From NCBI GenBank assembly GCA_022561455.1, contig JADFRC010000002.1:1-32000 (forward strand): a DNA stretch of 32,000 bases, written 5' to 3'. Source of the stretch: Chloroflexota bacterium. GTDB taxonomy: Bacteria; Chloroflexota; Dehalococcoidia; Lucifugimonadales; Australimonadaceae. How positions within the stretch are numbered: position 1 is the first letter of the stretch; every line of letters starts with the position of its first letter. Below are positions 10,952-30,628 of this stretch, piece by piece. The notes beneath the pieces are model-generated. The model ran no database searches, was not told where the DNA came from, and worked only from the letters and a program-made list of their open reading frames with translations. A program made the translations under genes and the position numbers.

Positions 10952-11069
10952 TTGCGTCCGCGGCCGGCCCGGCCGCGTGCGATACAATATGTCAGCGCCG
11001 ACGGCTTCGCAGTCCGGCCGCGGCGCCCATCTCGTTCATGTAGGGGAGCCCGCCGAGGTGCCAGGCAGC

Positions 11070-12035
11070 ATGGTCGTCAGGATAGGCGTCGCCGGTGCCT
11101 CCGCGATGGCGCGGGAGGGCCGCGAGACGTTCCTCCGGTACCTCGACACGCTCGAGGCGCTCCGGTGGGACTCCGTGTGGTTCTCGGACCGCATCGTCGG
11201 CGGCGCATGGCGGATGGACCCGCTCGCCGGCATGGCGATCACCGCCGGCCGGACCGAGAAGCTCAAGTTCGGCACGGGCGTGCTGCTCATGTCGATGCGC
11301 AGCCCCGTGGCGGCCGCCCGCGAGCTCGCCACGATCGACCTGCTCTCGAACGGCAGGCTCATCGTCGGCGTCGGCATCGGCCAGGAGTCGACGGTCGAAT
11401 ACGACGCGATGGGCGTGCGCAAGCGCGACCGCGGCAAGCGCCTCGACGAGGCGATCGTGATCATGCGGCGGCTGTGGACGGAGGACAGCGTCACCTACGA
11501 GAGCGACTTCCTCAAGCTGACCGAGGCCTCGATCCAGGTGCGCCCGAAGCAGGCCAACATACCGATATGGATCGGCAGCAGGACGGAGCCCGGACTGCGC
11601 CGCACCGGGCGCCTCGGCGACGGCTGGCTGCCGACGCAGATCACGCCGGAGGAGGTCGAGAAGGGCATCGAGCGCATCAAGGAGCACGCGGCCGAGGCAG
11701 GCCGCGACTTCGACCCCGGCCACTACGGCGTGCAGATCGGCACGTACCTGGTCGAGCGCGGACGCGTCCCCGCCGAGGTCACGGAGCGCTATCTCACCTC
11801 GCGCCGCTCCGACGTCCCCGCGGAGGCGATCAACCTGCTCGGCACGCCGGAGACGGTGACGGCGCGGCTCCGTGAGTACATCGACGCCGGAGCCACGAAG
11901 TTCGTCTTCAACCCCGCATGCGGCGCCGGCGAGATGTTCGACCAGCTCCAGCTCCAAGCCGAGGCCATCGTCCAACCCTTCCACCAGGGCGCAGCCCTGG
12001 ACCCACTAGAGGGGCGAACTTCAGTGGTGGGCTGA
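11070..12035 (+). CDS. LLM-class (luciferase-like) flavin/F420-dependent oxidoreductase
   Basis: Track ORF 10977..12035. Start moved to ATG 11070 (MVVRIGVAGAS...) because ATG 10977/10989 overlap a TACAAT box (10983-10988). TIM-barrel LLM pattern: WDSVWFSDR, GRLIVGVGIG, IPIWIGS. The last ~16 codons run into a repeat module. Confidence 0.75.
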   Translation: MVVRIGVAGASAMAREGRETFLRYLDTLEALRWDSVWFSDRIVGGAWRMDPLAGMAITAGRTEKLKFGTGVLLMSMRSPVAAARELATIDLLSNGRLIVGVGIGQESTVEYDAMGVRKRDRGKRLDEAIVIMRRLWTEDSVTYESDFLKLTEASIQVRPKQANIPIWIGSRTEPGLRRTGRLGDGWLPTQITPEEVEKGIERIKEHAAEAGRDFDPGHYGVQIGTYLVERGRVPAEVTERYLTSRRSDVPAEAINLLGTPETVTARLREYIDAGATKFVFNPACGAGEMFDQLQLQAEAIVQPFHQGAALDPLEGRTSVVG

Positions 12036-14573: not shown

Positions 14574-15440
14574 GTGCAGCTAGGCGTCGTGTTCCCGCAG
14601 ACCGAGCTGGGCTCGGACCCCGGCGCGGTCCGCGCGTTCGCCCTGGCGGCGGAGGAGCTCGGCTACGCCCACCTCGTCGCGTTCGACCACGTGCTCGGCG
14701 TCGACACCAGCACGCGGCCCGACTGGCGCGGCCCCTACACCTCCCGCAGCAACTTCCACGAGCCGTTCGTCCTGTTCGGCTACCTGGCGGGGATCACCAC
14801 GACGCTGGAGCTCGTGACGGGCATCATCATCCTCCCGCAGCGCCAGACCGCGCTCGTCGCGAAGCAGGCCGCCGAGGTCGACGTCCTCAGCGGCGGGCGG
14901 CTGCGCCTCGGCGTCGGCATCGGCTGGAACGACGTCGAGTACGAGGCGCTCGGCGAGGACTTCCACAACCGCGGCCGCCGTTCCGAGGAGCAGGTCGACG
15001 TGATGCGGGCGCTGTGGGCCCAGGAGACCGTGACCTTCGAGGGGCGGTGGCACACCATCCCCGGAGCGGGGATCAATCCCCGGCCCGCGCGCGGCACCAT
15101 CCCCGTCTGGTTCGGCGGCGGCAGGGAGGAGCGCGTCCTGCGCCGCATCGCGCGCATGGGCGACGGCTGGTTCCCCCAGGGCGCGCCCGACGAGAAGATG
15201 GTGGAGCGGCTCGCGATGTTTCGGGGGTTCATCGCCGAGGCCGGGCGGGACGCCGCCGCCGTCGGCATCGAGGCCCGCGCGGGCATGCGCGATGGCCTCG
15301 ATGCGGCCCTCGATCAGGCTCGCCGGTGGGAGGCGCTCGGCGCAACCCACCTGGCGGTGAACACGATGGGTGCCGGGTACGAGACCGTGGAAGCGCACAT
15401 CGATGCGATCGCATCGTTCAAGCAGAGGCTGACAGGCTGA
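14574..15440 (+). CDS. LLM-class F420-dependent oxidoreductase (Rv2161c-like family by recollection)
   Basis: GTG start after GGAGG. MQLGVVFPQTELGSDPGAVRAFALAAEELGYAHLVAFDHVLG and GRLRLGVGIGWN are typical of this family. Confidence 0.8.
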   Translation: MQLGVVFPQTELGSDPGAVRAFALAAEELGYAHLVAFDHVLGVDTSTRPDWRGPYTSRSNFHEPFVLFGYLAGITTTLELVTGIIILPQRQTALVAKQAAEVDVLSGGRLRLGVGIGWNDVEYEALGEDFHNRGRRSEEQVDVMRALWAQETVTFEGRWHTIPGAGINPRPARGTIPVWFGGGREERVLRRIARMGDGWFPQGAPDEKMVERLAMFRGFIAEAGRDAAAVGIEARAGMRDGLDAALDQARRWEALGATHLAVNTMGAGYETVEAHIDAIASFKQRLTG

Positions 15441-16296: not shown

Positions 16297-17532
16297 ATGC
16301 TGACTCAAGGGCAGAACGAGCGCCTGACGCGGGTCGGCCCCGGCACGCCGATGGGCGAGCTGATGCGGCGCTACTGGCACCCCATCGCGGCGGCCTCGGA
16401 GCTCTCCGGCGAGCAGCCGACGAAGCCGGTGCGGCTGCTGGGCGAGGACCTCGTCCTCTACCGCCTGCGCGGCGGCCGCCTCGGACTCATCACGAACCGG
16501 TGCGCGCACCGCGGCATGGACCTCTCGTACGGCATCCCCGAGGAGGATGGGCTGCGCTGCGCCTACCACGGCTGGATGTACGACGTGAGCGGCCAGTGCA
16601 TCGAGCAGCCGTCCGAGCCGTCGCGCAGCAACTACAAGGCCGAGATCAAGCTGACCGCCTACCCCGTGGAGGAGCTGGGCGGCCTCGTCTGGGCGTATCT
16701 CGGCCCGACGCCGGCGCCGCTCGTCCCCCGCTGGGACATGTTCGCCTGGGACAACGTGACGCGTGAGATCTCGGCCGTCATGCTGCCGTGCAACTGGCTC
16801 CAGACCGTCGACAACGCGCTCGACCCCGCCCACTTCGAGCACCTGCACGGCTACTACGGCTCCTGGGTCATGTCGCAGAGGGGCACGTCGGAGGAGTGGG
16901 ACGTGGTCCGCTCCCGCCCGCGCGCCGGCCACCACTACCGCATCGGCTTCGACCGCTTCGAGCACGGCATCATCAAGCGCCGCGTCACCGACGCCGGGGA
17001 CGAGAACAGCGACATCTGGAAGATCGGGCACCCGATCATCTTCCCGTACACGCTCCGGATCGGAGGGGGCGAGCAGCACACCTTCCTGCTGCGCGTGCCG
17101 GTGGACGACGAGAACACCTGGTACGTGCGCTACATCGTCCGCGTGCCCGAGCAGGGGCAGCAGGCCCCGCCGCAGGACGCGATCCCGCTGGGCGAGATAC
17201 CGCTCTACGACCCGCGCGGGCGGCTGAAGAACGACACCATCCCGTCGCAGGACCAGCTCGCCTGGGTCGGCCAGGGCGCGATCAGCGACCGCACGACGGA
17301 GCACCTCGGCGTGACCGACACCGGCGTGATCATGTACCGCCGGATGCTGGAGGAGCAGATGTCGATCGTGGCCGAGGGCGGGGACCCCATCAACACCTTC
17401 CGGGACCCGGCCGCCAACGAGTGCATCCTGCTCCCGATCGAGGGCGGGCGGTACCCCGGATACGACGTCGAAGGAGGCCCCTTCGCCGGCCAAGAGTCCC
17501 ACCGCGCCGAGGCCGAGGCGAACCTCGTCTAG
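16297..17532 (+). CDS. Rieske [2Fe-2S] non-haem iron oxygenase, phthalate-family alpha-type subunit (paralog 1)
   Basis: SD GGAGGGA. Rieske motif CAHRGMDLSYG...CAYHGWMYD. Mononuclear iron motif CNWLQTVDNALDPAHFEHLH. N-terminal NERLTRVGPGTPMGELMRRYWHPI. Confidence 0.88.
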   Translation: MLTQGQNERLTRVGPGTPMGELMRRYWHPIAAASELSGEQPTKPVRLLGEDLVLYRLRGGRLGLITNRCAHRGMDLSYGIPEEDGLRCAYHGWMYDVSGQCIEQPSEPSRSNYKAEIKLTAYPVEELGGLVWAYLGPTPAPLVPRWDMFAWDNVTREISAVMLPCNWLQTVDNALDPAHFEHLHGYYGSWVMSQRGTSEEWDVVRSRPRAGHHYRIGFDRFEHGIIKRRVTDAGDENSDIWKIGHPIIFPYTLRIGGGEQHTFLLRVPVDDENTWYVRYIVRVPEQGQQAPPQDAIPLGEIPLYDPRGRLKNDTIPSQDQLAWVGQGAISDRTTEHLGVTDTGVIMYRRMLEEQMSIVAEGGDPINTFRDPAANECILLPIEGGRYPGYDVEGGPFAGQESHRAEAEANLV

Positions 17533-21077: not shown

Positions 21078-21149
21078 CATGGGTAGGTGAGCCGGTGCCG
21101 CCCGGCCCCACGGCCAGGCGCGGCGGCTATCGGAAGTGAGGACGCAGCC

Positions 21150-22403
21150 GTGCTGACTCAAGAGCAGAACGAGCGCCTGACGCGGGTCGGACCCGGCACG
21201 CCGATGGGCGAGCTGATGCGCCGCTACTGGCACCCCATCGCGGCCAGCGTCGAGCTCAGCGAGGACAACCCCACCAAGGAGGTCCGCCTCCTCGGCGAGG
21301 ACCTCGTGCTCTTCCGCAGCACGGCAGGTGAGATCGGGCTGATCGAGCCGAGCTGCGCGCACCGCAAGGCCAACCTCTCCTACGGCATCCCGGAGCCCGA
21401 GGGCATCCGGTGTGCCTACCACGGCTGGCTTTATGACATCCACGGCCAGTGCGTCGACCAGCCGTCGGAGCCCGAGGGCAGCCGCTTCAAGGAGAAGGTC
21501 AAGCTCAAGGCGTATCGGGCCCAGGAGCTCGGCGGGCTCATCTTCGCCTACATGGGCCCCGAGCCCGCGCCGCTGCTCCCGCGCTACGACATGTTGGTCT
21601 GGCCCGGCGTCCGCAACGCGCAGGCGTGCATGCTGCCGTGCAACTGGCTCCAGTGCCACGAGAACTCGCTCGACCCGCTGCACTTCCAGTGGCTGCACCG
21701 CTACTACGGCGGCTACGTCATGAACAGGAAGAAGCCGCAGGCGGAGCGCGACGCCTGGAACCTCAGGACGCTGACCAAGGGCGCGGACCACCACAAGATC
21801 GGCTTCGAGAAGACGAGCTACGGCGTCATCAAGCGCCGGCTCATCGGCGACGAGACGGAGGACGACGACAACTGGAGGCTGGGGCACCCCGTCTTCTTCC
21901 CCAACATCCTGCGCATCGGCATCAACCTCCAGTTCCGCGTCCCCGTCGACGACACGCACACCCTGCACATGATGCTGAACTGGCGCGCCCTCAAGGACGG
22001 CGAGGAGACGCCTGATGCCGTCCCGTATCAGGAGCTCCCCGTCTACGACGACGACGGGAGGATCAAGGGCGATTGGGTGGTCGGTCAGGACCAGACCGCC
22101 TGGATCATCCAGGGCGCCATCACCGACCGCACCACCGAGCGCCTCGGCGTCACGGACATCGGGCTCATCATGTACCGCCGGATGCTCGAGGAGCAGATGC
22201 AGGTGGTCGCGGATGGGGGCGACCCGCTCAACACCCACCGCGACCCGGTGGAGAACGAGATCATCATGGTCCCGTGCGAGCGCTTCGAATACCCTGGCTA
22301 CGAGGGCATCCCCGGCGGCCCGTTCAAGGACATCGTCGTCCACAACGACGTGGAAGCGGTGCTCTCGGGCGAGGGCGTGAAGCGCCCCGAGTTCGCCACC
22401 TAG
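21150..22403 (+). CDS. Rieske [2Fe-2S] non-haem iron oxygenase (paralog 2)
   Basis: In frame within track ORF 21087..22403. GTG 21150 gives VLTQEQNERLTRVGPG, colinear with paralog 1 (MLTQGQNERLTRVGPG). CAHRKANLSYG...CAYHGWLYD; CNWLQCHENSLDPLHFQWLH. Confidence 0.88.
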   Translation: MLTQEQNERLTRVGPGTPMGELMRRYWHPIAASVELSEDNPTKEVRLLGEDLVLFRSTAGEIGLIEPSCAHRKANLSYGIPEPEGIRCAYHGWLYDIHGQCVDQPSEPEGSRFKEKVKLKAYRAQELGGLIFAYMGPEPAPLLPRYDMLVWPGVRNAQACMLPCNWLQCHENSLDPLHFQWLHRYYGGYVMNRKKPQAERDAWNLRTLTKGADHHKIGFEKTSYGVIKRRLIGDETEDDDNWRLGHPVFFPNILRIGINLQFRVPVDDTHTLHMMLNWRALKDGEETPDAVPYQELPVYDDDGRIKGDWVVGQDQTAWIIQGAITDRTTERLGVTDIGLIMYRRMLEEQMQVVADGGDPLNTHRDPVENEIIMVPCERFEYPGYEGIPGGPFKDIVVHNDVEAVLSGEGVKRPEFAT

Positions 22404-22553
22404 GGCACAGCCCTGGACCCATAAAAGGGCGCACGCCGGCGGTGGGCTGACGTGGCAGCGATGGCCGGAGCGTAGGCGTACAAGGGCAGCGGGACGAGAT
22501 CCTTCGCTCCGCTGCAGGATGACCGCCGACGAAGCGGACCGAGGGTGCGCGGA

Positions 22554-22598
22554 CCAACCGTGAGCTTTAGTCCGGAGCCGGAGCGAAGCGTAGGCGCA
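22554..22598 (+). repeat. 45-nt segment identical to 12145-12189 (head of the argC-proximal tandem unit)
   Basis: CCAACCGTGAGCTTTAGTCCGGAGCCGGAGCGAAGCGTAGGCGCA at both loci. Here it is followed by CAGTTAGAGGAGGCGACAAGCATG, which supplies the SD and start of Rieske paralog 3. Confidence 0.9.
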
Positions 22599-22619
22599 CA
22601 GTTAGAGGAGGCGACAAGC

Positions 22620-23876
22620 ATGATTACCGCGGAGATGAACGACCGGCTGACGCGCGTCGGGCCCGGCACGCCGATGGGCGAGCTCATGCGCCGCTACTGG
22701 CACCCCATCGCCGGCAGCTCCCAGCTCAACGACGACAACCCGACCAAGGAGGTACGCCTCCTCGGCGAGGACCTCGTGCTCTTCCGGAGCACCGCCGGCA
22801 AGCTCGGGCTGATCGAGCCGAGCTGCGCCCACCGCAAGGCGAACCTTTCGTACGGCATCCCGGAGCCCGAGGGCATCCGATGTGCCTACCACGGCTGGCT
22901 CTACGACGTGGACGGTCAGTGCGTCGATCAGCCCTCCGAGCCCGAGGGCAGCCGCTTCAAGGAGAAGGTCAAGCTCAAGGCGTACAAGGCAGAGGAGCTC
23001 GGCGGCCTCATCTTCGCCTACATGGGCCCCGAGCCCGCGCCGCTGCTCCCGCGATGGGACATCCTGGTCTGGGACGGCATCCGCAGCGCGACGTCGGTCA
23101 AGCTCGCGTGCAACTGGCTCCAGTGCCACGAGAACTCGCTCGACCCGCTCCACTTCCAGTGGCTCCACCGCTACTACGGCGGCTGGGTCATGAACCGCAA
23201 GAAGCCCGCCGCGGAGCGCGACGAGTGGAACGCGCGCACGATGTCCAAGGGTGCCGAGCACCGCAAGATCGGCTTCGAGAAGACGAGCTACGGCGTCATC
23301 AAGCGCCGGCTCATCGGCGACGAGACGGAGGACGACGACAACTGGAAGCTGGGTCATCCCATCCTGTTCCCGCACATCCTGCGGAACGGAGACACGCTGC
23401 AGTACCGCATCCCCATCGACGACACGCACACCGACCACCTCGTGCTCTCGCACAAGTTCCTCAAGCCTGGCGAGGTCACCAACGAGGGGAACGTGCCCTT
23501 CGAGGACGTCTCCGCCTACTACGAGGACGGCCGGCTGCGCGACGACTACGTGCGCGGCCAGGACCAGACCGCCTGGGTGATCCAGGGCGCGATCATGGAC
23601 CGCACGACCGAGCGCCTCGGCGTCTCCGACGTTGGCCTGATCATGTTCCGCCGCATGCTCGACGAGCAGGCAAGGATCGTCGAGGACGGCGGCGAGCCGA
23701 TGAACGTCTACCGCGACCCGGCTGAGAACGAGATCCACATCTTCCCCGTCGAGCGGCGCGCGTACCCCGGCTACGAGGGCACGGGCGGGCCGTTCAAGGA
23801 CATCACCCCACGCAAGCCCGACGTGGAGACCATCCTCTCCGGCGAGGGCGCCAAGCTCTCCCAGTGGAAGACGTAG
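22620..23876 (+). CDS. Rieske [2Fe-2S] non-haem iron oxygenase (paralog 3)
   Basis: ATG 22620 after GAGGAGG, within track ORF 22545..23876. Same Rieske and iron motifs as paralog 2. Confidence 0.88.
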   Translation: MITAEMNDRLTRVGPGTPMGELMRRYWHPIAGSSQLNDDNPTKEVRLLGEDLVLFRSTAGKLGLIEPSCAHRKANLSYGIPEPEGIRCAYHGWLYDVDGQCVDQPSEPEGSRFKEKVKLKAYKAEELGGLIFAYMGPEPAPLLPRWDILVWDGIRSATSVKLACNWLQCHENSLDPLHFQWLHRYYGGWVMNRKKPAAERDEWNARTMSKGAEHRKIGFEKTSYGVIKRRLIGDETEDDDNWKLGHPILFPHILRNGDTLQYRIPIDDTHTDHLVLSHKFLKPGEVTNEGNVPFEDVSAYYEDGRLRDDYVRGQDQTAWVIQGAIMDRTTERLGVSDVGLIMFRRMLDEQARIVEDGGEPMNVYRDPAENEIHIFPVERRAYPGYEGTGGPFKDITPRKPDVETILSGEGAKLSQWKT

Positions 23877-23984: not shown

Positions 23985-24350
23985 GAACAGCATGCGCAGA
24001 GCGGCGAAGCCCGTTCGCCGGGCGCGCGCGGGTACCCCTCGTCATGGGCTCTATCACCCGCTTCCTGTCAGGGGCCTTGCCTATCGAGGTCCCCTTTCGT
24101 GCACCGGACAGGGTGTGCAGAGCGGCGAAGCCCGTTCGCCGGGCGCGCGGGTGCCTCTCGTCATGGGCTCTATCACCCACTTCCTGTCAGGGGCCTTGTC
24201 CCAAGGTCCCCTTTCGGCCATCGGACAGGGGTATGCAGAGGGGCAGAGCCCCTCTGCCGGGGGCACGGGGGTGTCCCCCGTTGTTGGCCTTATCCCCCCC
24301 TTCCTGGCAGGAAGGGGGACGGGGGGATGGTCGAAAGGGTGGTAGGGAAC
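23985..24350 (+). repeat. head-to-tail array of three repeat units: two divergent-subfamily units (about 23985-24105 and 24106-24226) plus one canonical three-hairpin unit (24227-24350)
   Basis: Units A and B share GCAGAGCGGCGAAGCCCGTTCGCCGGGCGCGCGGGT..CTCGTCATGGGCTCTATCACCC.CTTCCTGTCAGGGGCCTTG...GGTCCCCTTTCG. Unit C is canonical (GCAGAGGGGCAGAGCCCCTCTGCC...GGATGGTCGAAAGG). Confidence 0.85.
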
Positions 24351-24409
24351 TGACGCGACGGTAGCGGAGCGGACGTTCCAGGCAAGATCCAATTGCAGGA
24401 GGAGCCAGC

Positions 24410-25920: not shown

Positions 25921-26067
25921 CCATCGTCTGTTATCCAGAGCAACCGTCCTGTCATTCCGGGCCACTGTTCTGTCATTCCGAGCCACTGTTCTGTCATTCC
26001 AGGCCACTGTTCTGTCATTCCGGGCCACCGTCCTGTTATTCCAGGCCACTGTTCTGTCATTCCGAGC
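25921..26067. repeat. 21-bp tandem repeat, 7 units (consensus CACTGTTCTGTCATTCCGRGC)
   Basis: Units start at 25921, 25942, 25963, 25984, 26005, 26026 and 26047. The first and sixth are more diverged. The last unit is also the 5' arm of the REP hairpin at 26054-26136. Confidence 0.9.
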
Positions 26068-26136
26068 GGAGCGAGAAATCTCTCGGGACGCGCGTGAGAG
26101 ATCTCTCGTCGGCCTGCGGCCTCCTCGGGATGACAG
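26054..26136. repeat. REP-like long hairpin (arms CTGTCATTCCGAG / CTCGGGATGACAG)
   Basis: 13-nt arms are complementary apart from one G:T. Inner near-palindrome GAGAAATCTCTC...GAGAGATCTCTC. Confidence 0.7.
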
Positions 26137-26248: not shown

Positions 26249-26752
26249 ATGTCGCCGATCGCTCACGCCATCATGAACAGCGAGCTCTTCGCTGACCTAT
26301 CGCCCCGCCAGGCCAAGAGCCTGGACCGCCTTGCCAAGCATGTGCGCTTCAAGAAGGGCGCCGTGCTCTTCTCCGCCGGGGAGCCCGCCGAGCGCCTCTA
26401 CGTCGTGCTCGAAGGCACCGTGGAGCTCCGGATGCCCGTCCCAAGCTGGTGGGGGATAGCGACGCCGCACGAGAAGATGACCACCGCCCGGCCGGGCCAG
26501 ATCGTCGGCTGGTCGGCGCTGGCCGAGCCCTGCGTGTACTCGCTCACCGCGGTCGCGTCCGAGCGCGCCACGGCGGCACGCTTCGAGGCGGGTGCGCTGC
26601 GGGAGCTCATGAGCGCCGACCCGGAGCTGGGGAACATCGTCCGGGCCCGCGCGCTCTCCGTCGTCAGCCGCAGGCTGGACGCGCTGGCCGAGGCCATGCT
26701 CGCGCAGCGCGCCGTCATGGCCTCCCAGGCCGCCGCTCCCGCGTACGCGTAG
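26249..26752 (+). CDS. cyclic nucleotide-binding domain protein (stand-alone cNMP-binding, no HTH seen)
   Basis: LFADLSPRQAKSLDRLAKHVRFKKGAVLFSAGEPAERLYVVLEGTVEL is a typical cNMP-binding beta-barrel start. 167 aa. Confidence 0.7.
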   Translation: MSPIAHAIMNSELFADLSPRQAKSLDRLAKHVRFKKGAVLFSAGEPAERLYVVLEGTVELRMPVPSWWGIATPHEKMTTARPGQIVGWSALAEPCVYSLTAVASERATAARFEAGALRELMSADPELGNIVRARALSVVSRRLDALAEAMLAQRAVMASQAAAPAYA

Positions 26753-26822: not shown

Positions 26823-26947
26823 GGGGAGTGCAGAGGGGCAAAGCCCCTATGCCGGGGGCACGGGGGTGTCCCCCGTCTTTGGCTTCATCTCCCCCTTCCT
26901 GGCCAGGAAGGGGGACGGGGGGATGGTCGAAACGGTCGTGGGGCACC
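26823..26947 (+). repeat. three-hairpin repeat, copy 6
   Basis: GGGGAGTGCAGAGGGGCAAAGCCCCTATGCCGGGGGCACGGGGGTGTCCCCCGTCTTTGGCTTCATCTCCCCCTTCCTGGCCAGGAAGGGGGACGGGGGGATGGTCGAAACGGTCGTGGGGCACC. Confidence 0.9.
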
Positions 26948-26970
26948 GGCGCGGCGGGCGTGGGGCGGGC

Positions 26971-27870
26971 CTACCCGCGCAGCTTCGCGATCACCTGCTC
27001 GCCGAACGCCGGTATCTGCTCGTCCACCATGTCCCCTGGGAACTGCACGTGGAACGTGTCCACCCCCGCCTCGCGCCACGTCTCGACCTGATCGAGCACC
27101 TCGTCCGCGGTGCCCATGATGCCGCCGCGCGTGCCGAGGGTCTGCGGCATGAGGGTGGCCGGGTCGGCGGCCCCCACGTAGGCCGTGCAGTTCACGACGC
27201 GGTGCAGCACCGCCGGGTCCCGGCCGGCTGCATCCGCGCCTGCTTCGAGCAGCGCGACCTGCTCGCGGTACGCCTCGATGGAGTCCGGCCAGCCGCCGTT
27301 CTTGATCCAGCCGTCGGCCACGCGGCCCGTGAGCGCCATCATCCGCGGCTTGCCCGCGCCCAAGAAGATGGGGATCGTGCCCTCGACCGGCTTCGGGTCG
27401 ACCACGCCCTCGGCCACGCTCAAGCGCTTCCCCTCGTACGTGAACGACTCGTTCGCCCACAGCCCGCGGAGGATGGTGATGGCGTCCTCGAGGCGCTCGA
27501 AGCGCTCGGCGGGGGTGCCCAGCGTGATGCCGTAGCCCGCGTAGTGCTTCTCCTGGCCGCCCGCGCCGAGGGTCAGCAGCACGCGGCCGCCGCCGGTGAT
27601 CACATCCAGGCTCGCGGCCATCTTCGCGAGCATGCCGGCGTTGCGGAACGGCACGTTGAGCGTCGAGTGCGTCAGCCGGATGCGCTCGGTCTGCACGCCG
27701 ACCGCCGTGGCCATCGTCCACGCCTCGATGTTGTGCTCCGGCGGCCGGTCGCTGAAGGCGATGTTGTCGAACCCGGCGGCCTCGGCGGCCTTCGCGACCG
27801 CGACGGTCCGCTCGTAGGAGAGCCCACGGGGGTTCAGGCCGAAGCGCGTCGCGTTGCTGCTGCGTCCCAT
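26971..27870 (-). CDS. LLM-class flavin/F420-dependent oxidoreductase
   Basis: SD GGGAGG before ATG 27870. FGLNPRGLSYERTVAVAKAAEAAGFDNIAFSDRP, GGRVLLTLGAGG, IPIFLGAGKP pattern. Confidence 0.8.
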   Translation of the reverse strand: MGRSSNATRFGLNPRGLSYERTVAVAKAAEAAGFDNIAFSDRPPEHNIEAWTMATAVGVQTERIRLTHSTLNVPFRNAGMLAKMAASLDVITGGGRVLLTLGAGGQEKHYAGYGITLGTPAERFERLEDAITILRGLWANESFTYEGKRLSVAEGVVDPKPVEGTIPIFLGAGKPRMMALTGRVADGWIKNGGWPDSIEAYREQVALLEAGADAAGRDPAVLHRVVNCTAYVGAADPATLMPQTLGTRGGIMGTADEVLDQVETWREAGVDTFHVQFPGDMVDEQIPAFGEQVIAKLRG

Positions 27871-28601: not shown

Positions 28602-28726
28602 AGGGAGTGCAGAGGGGCGAAGCCCCTTTGCCGGGGGCACGGGGGTGTCCCCCGTATCTGGCTTTATCACCCCCTTCCTGGAGAGGAAGGGGGACGGGGG
28701 GATAGTCGAAAGGGCCGTGCGGCGCC
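28602..28726 (+). repeat. three-hairpin repeat, copy 7
   Basis: AGGGAGTGCAGAGGGGCGAAGCCCCTTTGCCGGGGGCACGGGGGTGTCCCCCGTATCTGGCTTTATCACCCCCTTCCTGGAGAGGAAGGGGGACGGGGGGATAGTCGAAAGGGCCGTGCGGCGCC. Confidence 0.9.
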
Positions 28727-28782
28727 GAGGCCTCGTGACTGGGACAGAGGCGTTGATGCAAACCCGCTGAAGGAGCTAGCCG

Positions 28783-29961
28783 ATGCCAAGGCTCGAAGAC
28801 CTGAGCGACACCGCCCGCCAGGGACACCTGAACTTCCCCGCGAGAGAGCACGACGACGCCCCCTTCGCGCGCTTGCGCAAGCCGCTGTCCGAGGCCAAGC
28901 TCGCGCTCGTGACCACCGCCGGCCTGCACCTGCGCGGCGACGCTCCGTTCAGCTCCGGCGACCAGACCTATCGGGTCATCCCGTCGAGCGCGGCCGCCAG
29001 CGGCATCATCCAGAGCCACACGAGCATCGGGTTCGACCGCACGGCCTTCATGCGGGACATCAACGTCACGTTCCCGGTCGACCGCCTCCGCGAGCTCGTG
29101 GACCGCGGCACCATCGGCGCGCTCTCGGAGCGCTTCTACTCCTTCATGGGCGCGAACCGCGACCCGAAGAAGATCATCGAGGAGACCGGCCCCGAGGTCG
29201 CCCGCAAGCTGCTGGAGGAGGGCGTCGAGGCCGTGCTGCTGACCCCCACCTGACCGCTGTGCACGCACACGGTCTGTGTGCTCGCGCGGGTGTTCGAGGA
29301 GGCCGGCCTGGCGACGACCGCCATCGTGCTCATCAAGGAGCACGCCGAGCGCGTGAAGCCGCCGCGGGCGCTCTTCGTGCCCTTCCCCTTCGGCTTCGCG
29401 CTCGGCAACCCCGACGACCCGCCCTTCCAGCACAAGGTGCTCGCGGCCGCGCTCGACCTCTTCGGAGCCGACTCGACGCCGGTGCTCGCCGATTTCCCGG
29501 ACGACGCGGATGCGCCCGCCCGCCTGGTGCAGGCCAAGGCCGCCCAGAGCGAGGCCGTCAACGCCGATGGGGATGCGGCCGGCGAGATCACCGCGCTGCG
29601 CGGCTACTACGAGCGGTGGCTCGGCGACCACGACGGCCGCACGATGGTCGGCCTTTGCGGCGTGCCGCAGCGCAAGTTCCGCGGCCTCGTGCGCTTCCTC
29701 GAGGCCTATGCCGGCGGCGAGGACGCCCCGTACGACGACCGGCCTGCGGACATGCCGCTGCCGCGCTTCCTGCGCGTGGCCTCCGACGACCTCAAGGCCT
29801 TCTACATGGAGGCGCGCATGTGCCAGCGCCAGGACCACCGCAACAACGACCTCCAGAGCTGGTTCTGGTCGGAGACCGCGGGCGGCCGCCTCCTAGCGCG
29901 CGTCGCCGAGCGCCTCACCGCCGACGGCGACGAGCGCGCCGCGCAGGGGATCGCGCGGTAG
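28783..29961 (+). CDS. probable selenoprotein of the glycine/sarcosine/betaine/D-proline reductase component B (GrdB/PrdB-like) family; TGA 29251-29253 read as selenocysteine
   Basis: Track ORFs 28783..29253 and 29278..29961 share one frame and are separated only by TGA plus 24 nt encoding PLCTHTVC. The joined sequence ...AVLLTPT-U-PLCTHTVCVLARVFEEAGLATTAIVLIKEH has a UxxC motif. A SECIS-like hairpin starts 11 nt after the TGA. SD AGGAG precedes ATG 28783. Family call is from memory. Confidence 0.65.
29265..29281 (+). promoter_or_regulatory. candidate bacterial SECIS upper stem-loop
   Basis: GCACAC-GGUCU-GUGUGC: 6-bp stem with a loop containing GGUC. The first stem base is 11 nt after the UGA. 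Bulged extension is possible with 29259-29264 / 29282-29288. Confidence 0.55.
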
Positions 29962-30054: not shown

Positions 30055-30342
30055 CTACACGGCGGCGGAGTGCCGCTTCACCAGGGCCTTGGTCAGCTGG
30101 TAGTCGGTTTCCAGGTTCAGCCAGAACCGGGCTGGGATCTCCGGCATCACATGCTCAAGCTGAAGAGCCGTCTCAGCAGTAATGCTCTTTTTCCCGTTCA
30201 TGATTTCGTTGATGGCGTTCGCTGGGCGCCGCATGCGCCTGGCCAACTCCTTCTGCGACATGCCCCGTGCCTCGATCTCCTCCAACAGATACTCGCCAGG
30301 GGGAATGGCAACGTCAGGATAGGCGTCCGTCCTAGTCGCCAT
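30055..30342 (-). CDS. higA: HigA-family antitoxin (XRE-type HTH)
   Basis: ATG 30342 preceded by GGAGG. IPPGEYLLEEIEARGMSQKELARRMRRPANAINEIMNGKKSITAETALQLE matches the HigA/VapI antidote pattern. The track ORF start at 30393 is less likely. Confidence 0.85.
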   Translation of the reverse strand: MATRTDAYPDVAIPPGEYLLEEIEARGMSQKELARRMRRPANAINEIMNGKKSITAETALQLEHVMPEIPARFWLNLETDYQLTKALVKRHSAAV

Positions 30343-30628
30343 GGTAGTCCTCCACATCCCAGATTCGCACTTCATCCTCGCTGATCCTCTCAACGAGAAG
30401 CCGATAGTTGCCCGTAAGCGTCATGGCGTGCTGGCCGGCACGATTCCCTTTCAAGGGATGCAATCGTAGAGCCCGGTGCCCGTAGAGTTGGGCGAATCTG
30501 TCAGTCGCTCGCAGGACTGCCAACCTTTGGATGTACTTCCGGCCGATGGGAACTCCGAAGAGCCTGGAGGCCTCTGATAGGCTTCGACTCGCCCTGGCGA
30601 GGCGAGTGGTTGCGAAACTGATGTCCAC
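30332..30628 (-). CDS. higB: HigB-type toxin (plasmid maintenance system killer, RelE/ParE superfamily)
   Basis: GTG start. ...RKYIQRLAVLRATDRFAQLYGHRALRLHPLKGNRAGQHAMTLTGNYRLLVE...VEDYH matches the HigB killer-protein pattern. Toxin-first order; 11-nt overlap with higA. Confidence 0.8.
   Translation of the reverse strand: MDISFATTRLARASRSLSEASRLFGVPIGRKYIQRLAVLRATDRFAQLYGHRALRLHPLKGNRAGQHAMTLTGNYRLLVERISEDEVRIWDVEDYHGD

Follow-up and report, generated by a model that had tools for sequence, protein, structure and literature searches.

The 32,000-nucleotide (nt) stretch of DNA analysed here, referred to as the window, covers positions 1 to 32,000 of contig JADFRC010000002.1 from the Chloroflexota assembly GCA_022561455.1. 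Positions 28783-29961 of its forward strand constitute one gene of the GrdB/PrdB (Pfam GRDB) superfamily which, with a probability of about 0.93, encodes a selenoprotein of 392 residues, the internal UGA codon being decoded as selenocysteine (Sec). The original prediction, made from the letters of the window, had proposed that the two open reading frames (ORFs) present at this place are probably the two parts of a single GrdB/PrdB-like selenoprotein. This proposal is borne out by a passing match to Pfam GRDB, by a PrdB model that spans the TGA, by a cysteine (Cys) column at the position of this codon and by a conserved hairpin downstream of it.

The ORFs 28783-29253 and 29278-29961 lie in a shared frame, and the TGA at 29251-29253 is the sole interruption. 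The 24 nt between them (29254-29277) encode PLCTHTVC, and the read-through product of 392 residues contains the motif T-U-P-L-C; frame, interruption, peptide, length and motif had all been reported before and each was read again from the sequence with the same result. The similar high usage of G and C at third codon positions (GC3) claimed for both flanks was also found, the value being 0.96 upstream and downstream of the TGA alike. In the alignment with full-length homologues, the N-terminus MPRLxxL lines up with their starts. Besides, the eight codons from the TGA to the GTG at 29278 are conserved at the protein level among relatives and free in their synonymous drift (Pro, for example, is written as CCG, CCC, CCT or CCA). 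One continuous gene is thus supported by the single frame, by the PrdB model running across the TGA and by the protein-conserved codons between the two ORFs.

The residue that belongs at the TGA is indicated by the homologues. Two classes of relatives were returned by the protein database search: full-length proteins of 394-399 amino acids (45-50% identity) and many pieces of 227-233 amino acids (60-94% identity) which begin just past the TGA. The TGA column is occupied by Cys in 16 of 16 aligned full-length homologues, within the motif TPT-C-PxC-T, and eight Cys-type loci have TGC or TGT at this position. Overall, Cys occupies the column in all 24 full-length homologues analysed. The column therefore behaves as a Sec/Cys pair in the PF07355/GrdB-PrdB-type homologues, and the UxxC redox motif has the Cys-containing counterparts named in the original prediction. 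The second residue of the motif, Cys160, is encoded by TGC in 72 and by TGT in 5 of the 77 Sec-type sequences, and it is invariant in the Cys-type homologues.

A scan limited to one genome per species gave 80 loci with 53-88% identity to the window protein. They come mostly from Dehalococcoidia/SAR202, many of them from sponge or marine metagenome-assembled genomes, and also from Entotheonella, Acidobacteriota and others; TGA stands at the column in all 80. A metagenome scan seeded with Cys-type proteins still gave 70 TGA loci, mostly from soil, versus four Cys loci. Neither TAA nor TAG was found at the column in any of the 150 Sec-type loci (80 from genomes and 70 from soil), so that homologues splitting here by a stop other than TGA, which the original prediction had named as evidence against itself, do not occur among them. 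Related to this, one has to consider that a Cys-type gene might have decayed to a pseudogene or been wrongly sequenced or assembled here, because a single-base change is enough to convert TGC or TGT into TGA and because the source is a metagenome assembly. The probability of such a lesion or error is nevertheless close to negligible: the TGA is present in 150 independent assemblies from varied species and habitats with a strongly conserved sequence downstream, the independent contig L001 reproduces the window sequence exactly, and no decay (frameshifts or other stops) is seen in the relatives downstream of the TGA. Such conservation, which is evidence from sequence comparison, establishes that the protein continues through the UGA. 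The internal TGA very probably encodes Sec.

The second line of evidence is the hairpin, a putative selenocysteine insertion sequence (SECIS). Its arms, GCACAC (29265-29270) and GUGUGC (29276-29281), pair around the loop GGUCU, and 11 nt separate the TGA from the stem, as a new reading of the sequence confirmed in every detail. The five core pairs (29266-29270 with 29276-29280) are unbroken in 77 of 77 distinct genome-derived sequences, and in 138 of 138 distinct Sec-type sequences once the soil clade is added. The Cys-type sequences keep two to four of these pairs each, and the complete core stem is found in none of the eight. Pair 19:27 is A-U in 54, G-C in 22 and G-U in one of the 77 genome-derived sequences (115, 22 and one, respectively, among the 138), and its switch from Thr ACN to Ala GCN in the 5' arm is matched in the 3' arm by a synonymous change of Ser from AGU to AGC. 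The Val codon of the 3' arm is GTG in 77 of 77 and the His codon of the 5' arm is CAC in 76 of 77. The Val codon of the loop uses all four forms in the same set (GTC 46, GTG 23, GTA 6, GTT 2), and third positions outside the stem have an entropy of 1.4-1.9 bits. Position 2 of the loop is G in 138 of 138 sequences and is the only universal loop base; at position 3, 83 of them have U and 55 have G. The observed level of covariation was matched by none of 500 shuffles, and when the pairing partners were slid, 19-57% of cells were paired versus 78% observed. The unbroken core, the compensatory changes, the frozen wobble positions of the stem and the freely varying loop codon, all of them features of the aligned sequences, argue that the hairpin is selected as RNA. 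In the supplement of the 2005 Sargasso Sea study (PMC1088965), paralogues show the same register (11-nt spacer, 6-bp stem and 5-nt loop) with wholly different stems, CCAGAC/GUCUGG and CUCCGU/GCGGAG.

Gene callers annotate two genes at this place in hundreds of assemblies. If they were right, the TGA would end a protein of 156 amino acids and a second one, of 227 amino acids, would be translated from the GTG at 29278, the two forming a split, two-subunit enzyme of the Cys type. The GTG at 29278-29280 is invariant in the 77 close relatives, as a start codon might be. However, two true genes are exceedingly improbable, since the stop is always TGA (150 of 150 loci) and coincides precisely with the Cys column, the 24 nt that separate the ORFs drift at synonymous sites and are selected as protein, and the UxxC motif would be cut in half. 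Inspection of the sequence ahead of the internal GTG revealed no Shine-Dalgarno-like motif. Moreover, in locus L151 the otherwise invariant C-G pair 16:30 is replaced by A-U (His to Asn in the 5' arm, GTG to GTT in the 3' arm), so that the stem is preserved with a codon that is not a start. The invariant GTG is therefore explained by a constraint on the stem and not by initiation.

Several observations weigh against the decoding of this TGA as Sec or against the hairpin as its signal. ARAGORN scans of the window and of all related loci (1.6 Mb) gave no tRNA-Sec, and tblastn with SelA, SelB and SelD of E. coli as queries gave no selA, selB or selD match in the window and the same related loci. 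A blind screen of the 1.6 Mb of related loci yielded no other gene with a conserved in-frame TGA, the matches being only off-frame artefacts of high-GC DNA; the use of Sec by these genomes is consequently attested by this gene alone. The folding energy of the hairpin is unremarkable in DNA of 70% GC (z-score of the minimum free energy, MFE, +0.98; an equal or better fold is reached by 172 of 200 shuffles), and since the single-sequence fold is no better than chance, its significance derives entirely from the comparative data. No SECIS family of Rfam was matched, either at gathering thresholds in the whole window or at permissive E-values in 29100-29450; the matches obtained were only chance ones to microRNAs and small RNAs. 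An extended lower stem (29257-29262/29284-29289), present in the MFE structure of the window, was dropped because most of its pairs are broken in 24-61 of the 77 sequences. Furthermore, the hairpin is located inside a coding sequence, where four of the five core pairs are partly set by conserved amino acids, and the counts given for hairpin and TGA come from sequences related by descent, not from independent events. The one indirect support for the machinery is that SelA and SelB are reported to co-occur in most bins of sponge symbionts (PMC5649159).

That neither the window nor 1.6 Mb of related loci yielded Sec machinery could also agree with a UGA at which one of the standard amino acids (Trp, Cys or Gly) is inserted, whether through near-cognate suppression or through a reassigned code, and the stop usage of the window is skewed to TAG. 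This explanation is nonetheless very improbable. TGA terminates Pfam-complete genes in the same window (the HbpS-like gene at 24410-24808 matches positions 1-128 of the 128 of its Pfam profile and then ends at TGA), which indicates that the genetic code is not reassigned. Besides, the TGA stands on the catalytic Cys column of a family whose founding members, PrdB and GrdB, are experimentally proven selenoproteins, and it is accompanied by a conserved hairpin with the spacing of fdhF and a G in the loop, which is absent from Cys-type genes. With regard to stop usage in general, the high-GC3 ORFs of the window end in TAG in 24 cases, in TGA in 13 and in TAA in one, unusually TAG-rich for a GC content of 70%, and all seven genes around the locus end in TAG (ends at 26752, 26971, 28521, 29961, 30055, 30332 and 30720).

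In the mechanism that we propose, the UGA at 29251-29253 would be decoded as selenocysteine rather than as a stop. The standard bacterial route is likely: the hairpin at 29265-29281, with its G-containing apical loop, would recruit SelB-GTP-Sec-tRNA(Sec) to the approaching ribosome, and after insertion of Sec translation would run on to the TAG at 29959. We infer this decoding by SelB and tRNA(Sec). In the protein, the Sec157-x-x-Cys160 pair is predicted to lie where a beta-strand meets the N-terminal end of a helix. By analogy with PrdB and GrdB, Sec157 and Cys160 are most likely a selenol/thiol redox centre, which would cycle through a selenenyl-sulfide and be re-reduced by an external dithiol. 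The coordinates of the features are collected in Table 1.

Table 1. Features of the selenoprotein gene and its decoding signals (positions of the window).
Feature	Position	Strand	Basis
Complete selenoprotein coding sequence, 392 amino acids (very probable Sec at residue 157), with TAG stop	28783..29961	+	single frame, one TGA
Shine-Dalgarno-like AAGGAG, 7 nt upstream of the ATG	28770..28775	+	direct reading of the sequence
PrdB/GrdB-like core, residues ~18-225	28834..29457	+	matches to PF07355 and TIGR04483
UGA very probably read as Sec (U157), opening the UxxC motif	29251..29253	+	Cys column in homologues; TGA in Sec-type loci
Spacer of 11 nt from UGA to hairpin	29254..29264	+	identical length in all aligned relatives and in three Sargasso paralogues
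Codon of Cys160, putative resolving Cys of UxxC	29260..29262	+	Cys in 77/77 Sec-type sequences
SECIS-like hairpin, 6-bp stem GCACAC/GUGUGC, loop GGUCU	29265..29281	+	conserved core 29266-29280
GTG (Val166), called as start of the second ORF; 3' arm of the hairpin	29278..29280	+	ORF list and comparison; database fragments of 227-233 amino acids start at this codon
C-terminal, mostly helical domain, residues ~228-392	29464..29958	+	no Pfam/NCBIfam model; absent from clostridial PrdB

The assignment to the GrdB/PrdB family, already contained in the original prediction, stands at the level of the superfamily. Pfam GRDB (PF07355) is matched with 52.4 bits against a gathering cut-off of 22, residues 18-156 corresponding to profile positions 206-347 of 347. 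The end of this profile (347/347) coincides with residue 156, immediately before Sec, which suggests that the model was built from UGA-truncated sequences and helps to perpetuate the split annotation. The best-scoring curated model is PrdB of NCBIfam (TIGR04483), which matches residues 27-225 across the TGA with 151.6 bits (E = 2e-44), below its equivalog cut-off of 300 bits. The GrdB-type models were failed as well: TIGR01918 at its subfamily cut-off (55.4 vs 65.45), and the remaining curated ones (TIGR01917, NF040794 and NF040795), for which the scores and cut-offs were 48.3 vs 602.2, 59.8 vs 775 and 59.3 vs 800.

The C-terminal ORF matches no Pfam or NCBIfam family. Conservation of its ~165-residue domain extends over 983 clusters at 50% identity. 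The AlphaFold model made for the Cys-type protein P0012, which is 50% identical to the window protein, has a predicted local distance difference test score (pLDDT) of 87.7 and a predicted template modelling score (pTM) of 0.88. In this model Cys157, equivalent to Sec, is placed between a strand (150-154) and a helix (158-173), and the extra domain consists of six helices (residues 266-393). A search of the PDB gave no match by sequence, nor by fold with the P0012 model.

The neighbourhood of the gene bears on its function. The window contains no grd, prd, sel or trx genes, and in none of the 150 Sec-type loci does the gene have a prdA or grd partner. Neither prd or grd genes nor thioredoxin nor any other partner is conserved beside it; the orphan status that had been noticed in the window extends in this way to the related loci. 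Clustering of conserved neighbours (79 genome loci and 74 metagenome loci) revealed no universal neighbour, the most widespread one being present in at most 20 of 79 genome loci and at most 10 of ~38 soil loci. The annotated neighbours are arfB, a luciferase-like monooxygenase (LLM), a major facilitator superfamily (MFS) transporter, a GNAT protein, a metallo-beta-lactamase (MBL) fold hydrolase, a glyoxalase and an alcohol dehydrogenase (ADH). The commonest of them (arfB, the luciferase-like oxidoreductase and the MFS transporter) are confined to the ~20 closest relatives and reflect synteny.

A genuine PrdB subunit of D-proline reductase, whose pyruvoyl partner PrdA would be encoded at another place in the genome, would explain why PrdB TIGR04483 is the best curated model (E = 2e-44) and why the UxxC motif is the same. 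The label is also in use, as the Joint Genome Institute (JGI) calls the Cys homologues 'D-proline reductase (dithiol) PrdB' and the papers of 2005 and 2008 name the family likewise. But such a subunit is improbable. The score is half of the equivalog cut-off, PrdB has no counterpart of the C-terminal domain, and neither PrdA nor any other prd gene is encoded near the 150 Sec-type or the 8 Cys-type loci. Moreover, the gene is carried by SAR202, sponge-symbiont and soil lineages, in loci with an abundance of oxygenase genes, and the Cys forms occur in catechol-cleavage clusters instead. The protein is a stand-alone, long-form member of the environmental 'PrdB-like' family and probably not a subunit of D-proline or glycine reductase. 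The failed PrdB and GrdB cut-offs, the lack of a prdA or grd partner at these loci and the extra helical domain make 'proline reductase' probably a misnomer.

The Cys-type loci (L082-L085 and L169-L172, from Actinomycetota and soil) have a context of their own. Catechol ortho-cleavage genes, namely an intradiol dioxygenase and/or a muconate cycloisomerase, are adjacent in six of the eight, and the families present in these clusters are Dioxygenase_C, MR_MLE, DLH, Fe-ADH and CoA-transferase. In P0042 the GRDB protein is fused to muconolactone isomerase, and in L172 the two are neighbours. A gene for the lipoyl carrier GcvH (GCV_H) lies within 4 kb in five of the eight loci, and L170 adds GcvT and DUF1330. 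GcvH, intradiol dioxygenase, dienelactone hydrolase, Fe-ADH, muconolactone isomerase and CoA-transferase are all absent near the 80 Sec-type genome loci; one Sec-type locus, L151 from soil, is an exception in having GcvH. This catechol/GcvH context, taken from gene order, is suggestive as a functional lead. Since the Cys-type members sit in catechol clusters and are repeatedly paired with GcvH, the long-form family might be a self-contained Sec/Cys-dependent reductase of aerobic catabolism and not a proline reductase, a tentative idea that we regard as unlikely in this specific form. Such an enzyme might, in the manner of GrdB, reductively break a C-N or C-X bond in an intermediate of ring cleavage or at an amino or halo substituent, lipoyl-GcvH could be the dithiol donor and the Sec forms of Chloroflexota could be a high-activity selenium version.

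As a separate observation, an enolase-superfamily gene is found ~1.2-2.5 kb downstream, on the opposite strand, in one Sec-type clade of about 12 loci (L035, L036, L039, L040, L051, L056, L058, L061, L063, L064 and L070). It was not counted as a link because it is only ~25% identical to actinobacterial muconate cycloisomerase.

The consequences for annotation are considerable. Of the best 150 cluster representatives of the family in a library of 1.8 billion proteins, ~140 are fragments starting directly past the TGA, in agreement with the expectation that gene callers would emit fragments here. As most representatives are such pieces, gene counts, domain statistics and structure predictions are wrong for the PrdB-like family in SAR202, sponge-symbiont and soil Chloroflexota. 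The window gene is a clean and well-controlled case of a selenoprotein gene systematically halved by annotation pipelines. It also adds further evidence that these largely aerobic lineages decode selenocysteine. Besides, an abundant family has been called 'proline reductase' for twenty years under a name that is probably wrong, and the catechol-pathway and GcvH context of the Cys forms offers a concrete starting point for the study of its function.

Other features of the window are described here for completeness. An intergenic repeat of ~141 nt is present in at least three copies within 5 kb (24229-24369, 26824-26964 and 28603-28743), with shorter relatives at 24024-24079 and 24143-24198. It contains internal G/C-rich inverted repeats, has no Rfam match and resembles in appearance repetitive extragenic palindromic (REP) sequences or miniature inverted-repeat transposable elements (MITE); its last copy ends 40 nt ahead of the start codon of the selenoprotein. 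About seven tandem copies of the 21-nt unit TCTGTCATTCCGRGCCACTGT occupy positions 25927-26073, between the genes for Ldh_2 and a cyclic nucleotide (cNMP)-binding protein. On the reverse strand, at 30055-30628, HigA is confirmed by the NCBIfam equivalog TIGR02607, and its overlapping partner of 98 amino acids upstream (30332-30628) matches neither Pfam nor NCBIfam. The GC content of both genes is 0.59 against 0.70 in the neighbours, and the relatives have the MFS transporter directly downstream at this position, so that the pair looks like a recent insertion. There are three LLM paralogues (10977-12035, 14574-15440 and 26971-27870) and three Rieske/LigXa-like oxygenases (16297-17532, 21087-22403 and 22545-23876). 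The window also holds an amidase, an amidohydrolase, a short-chain dehydrogenase/reductase (SDR) and an MBL hydrolase, a catabolic set typical of SAR202-type Chloroflexota.

Among the known systems to which the window gene can be compared, the clostridial selenoprotein PrdB of D-proline reductase was reportedly described by Kabisch and co-workers in 1999. Both proteins have a homologous core, a UxxC motif whose Sec falls at nearly the same position of the model, and a presumed selenol/thiol redox role. On the other hand, clostridial PrdB has ~240 residues and no further domain, whereas the window protein, with 392, is ~150 residues longer and has the extra helical domain; prdA, prdC and the other genes of the prd operon are not near the window gene, and the ecology is different.

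GrdB, GrdF and GrdH (PF07355, TIGR01917 and TIGR01918) are matched by the window protein in their C-terminal half, the Sec region included (profile positions 204-396 of 431; only ~204-400 over the curated models of ~430 residues), but the N-terminal half of GrdB, of ~200 residues, is missing from it. The GrdB motif is UxxCxxC according to a review, whereas the window has UxxCxxxxC, with the last Cys in only 11 of 77 relatives. Furthermore, grdA, grdC and grdE were not found near the window gene.

Regarding the decoding signal, the SECIS of E. coli fdhF shares with the window the 11-nt spacer, the short upper stem and an apical loop with GGUC (GGUCU in the window). The geometry given for fdhF in the original prediction agrees with the actual sequence of strain MG1655, in which the UGA and an 11-nt spacer are followed by GGUUGCA-GGUC-UGCACC. 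The differences are that fdhF has a bulged U whereas the stem of the window is a perfect one of 6 bp, and that the family keeps only the G at loop position 2 and not the whole GGUC.

The closest system is the environmental 'PrdB' family. 'Proline reductase PrdB', with UxxC, ranked third in abundance among the selenoprotein families of the Sargasso Sea, where it had 42 Sec genes and one Cys gene (Zhang, Fomenko & Gladyshev 2005; PMC1088965), and it was again among the top families in the Global Ocean Sampling (GOS) survey, in which 38 samples gave 235 Sec and 110 Cys sequences (Zhang & Gladyshev 2008; PMC2398784). These two papers contain nothing on the partners or function of the family and reviews of 2022 and 2026 nothing further on its function; the literature search found no functional work on a stand-alone PrdB-like, GrdB-like or PF07355 family. 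The supplement of 2005 includes long-form members with the C-terminal domain. One of them, AACY01067792, was aligned with the window protein by BLASTP from the Sec motif to the C-terminus with the Sec columns in register (E = 2e-41, 33% identity, 248 columns), and the C-terminal motifs GRT.VG, DDL.A.Y.E and W.W.ET..G.LL are common to both; AACY01439659 also shares motifs with the window protein.

Since the family and its Sec were published in 2005 and 2008, the selenoprotein claim is not new, and a specialist would not find it surprising. The published set, which takes its name from homology alone, comprises both short and long forms, whereas the window copy is of the Chloroflexota type, from a genome of 70% GC, and has its own stem sequence. 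The likeness comprises the UxxC motif with the same Sec position, the KPPRA(L) motif, the long C-terminal domain and the SECIS register (11-nt spacer, stem of 5-6 bp, 5-nt loop with G at position 2), together with an excess of Sec over Cys forms, 235:110 in GOS and ~140:6 among the best 150 cluster representatives here. The window gene is a new member of this family, whose Sec residue and SECIS had already been published.

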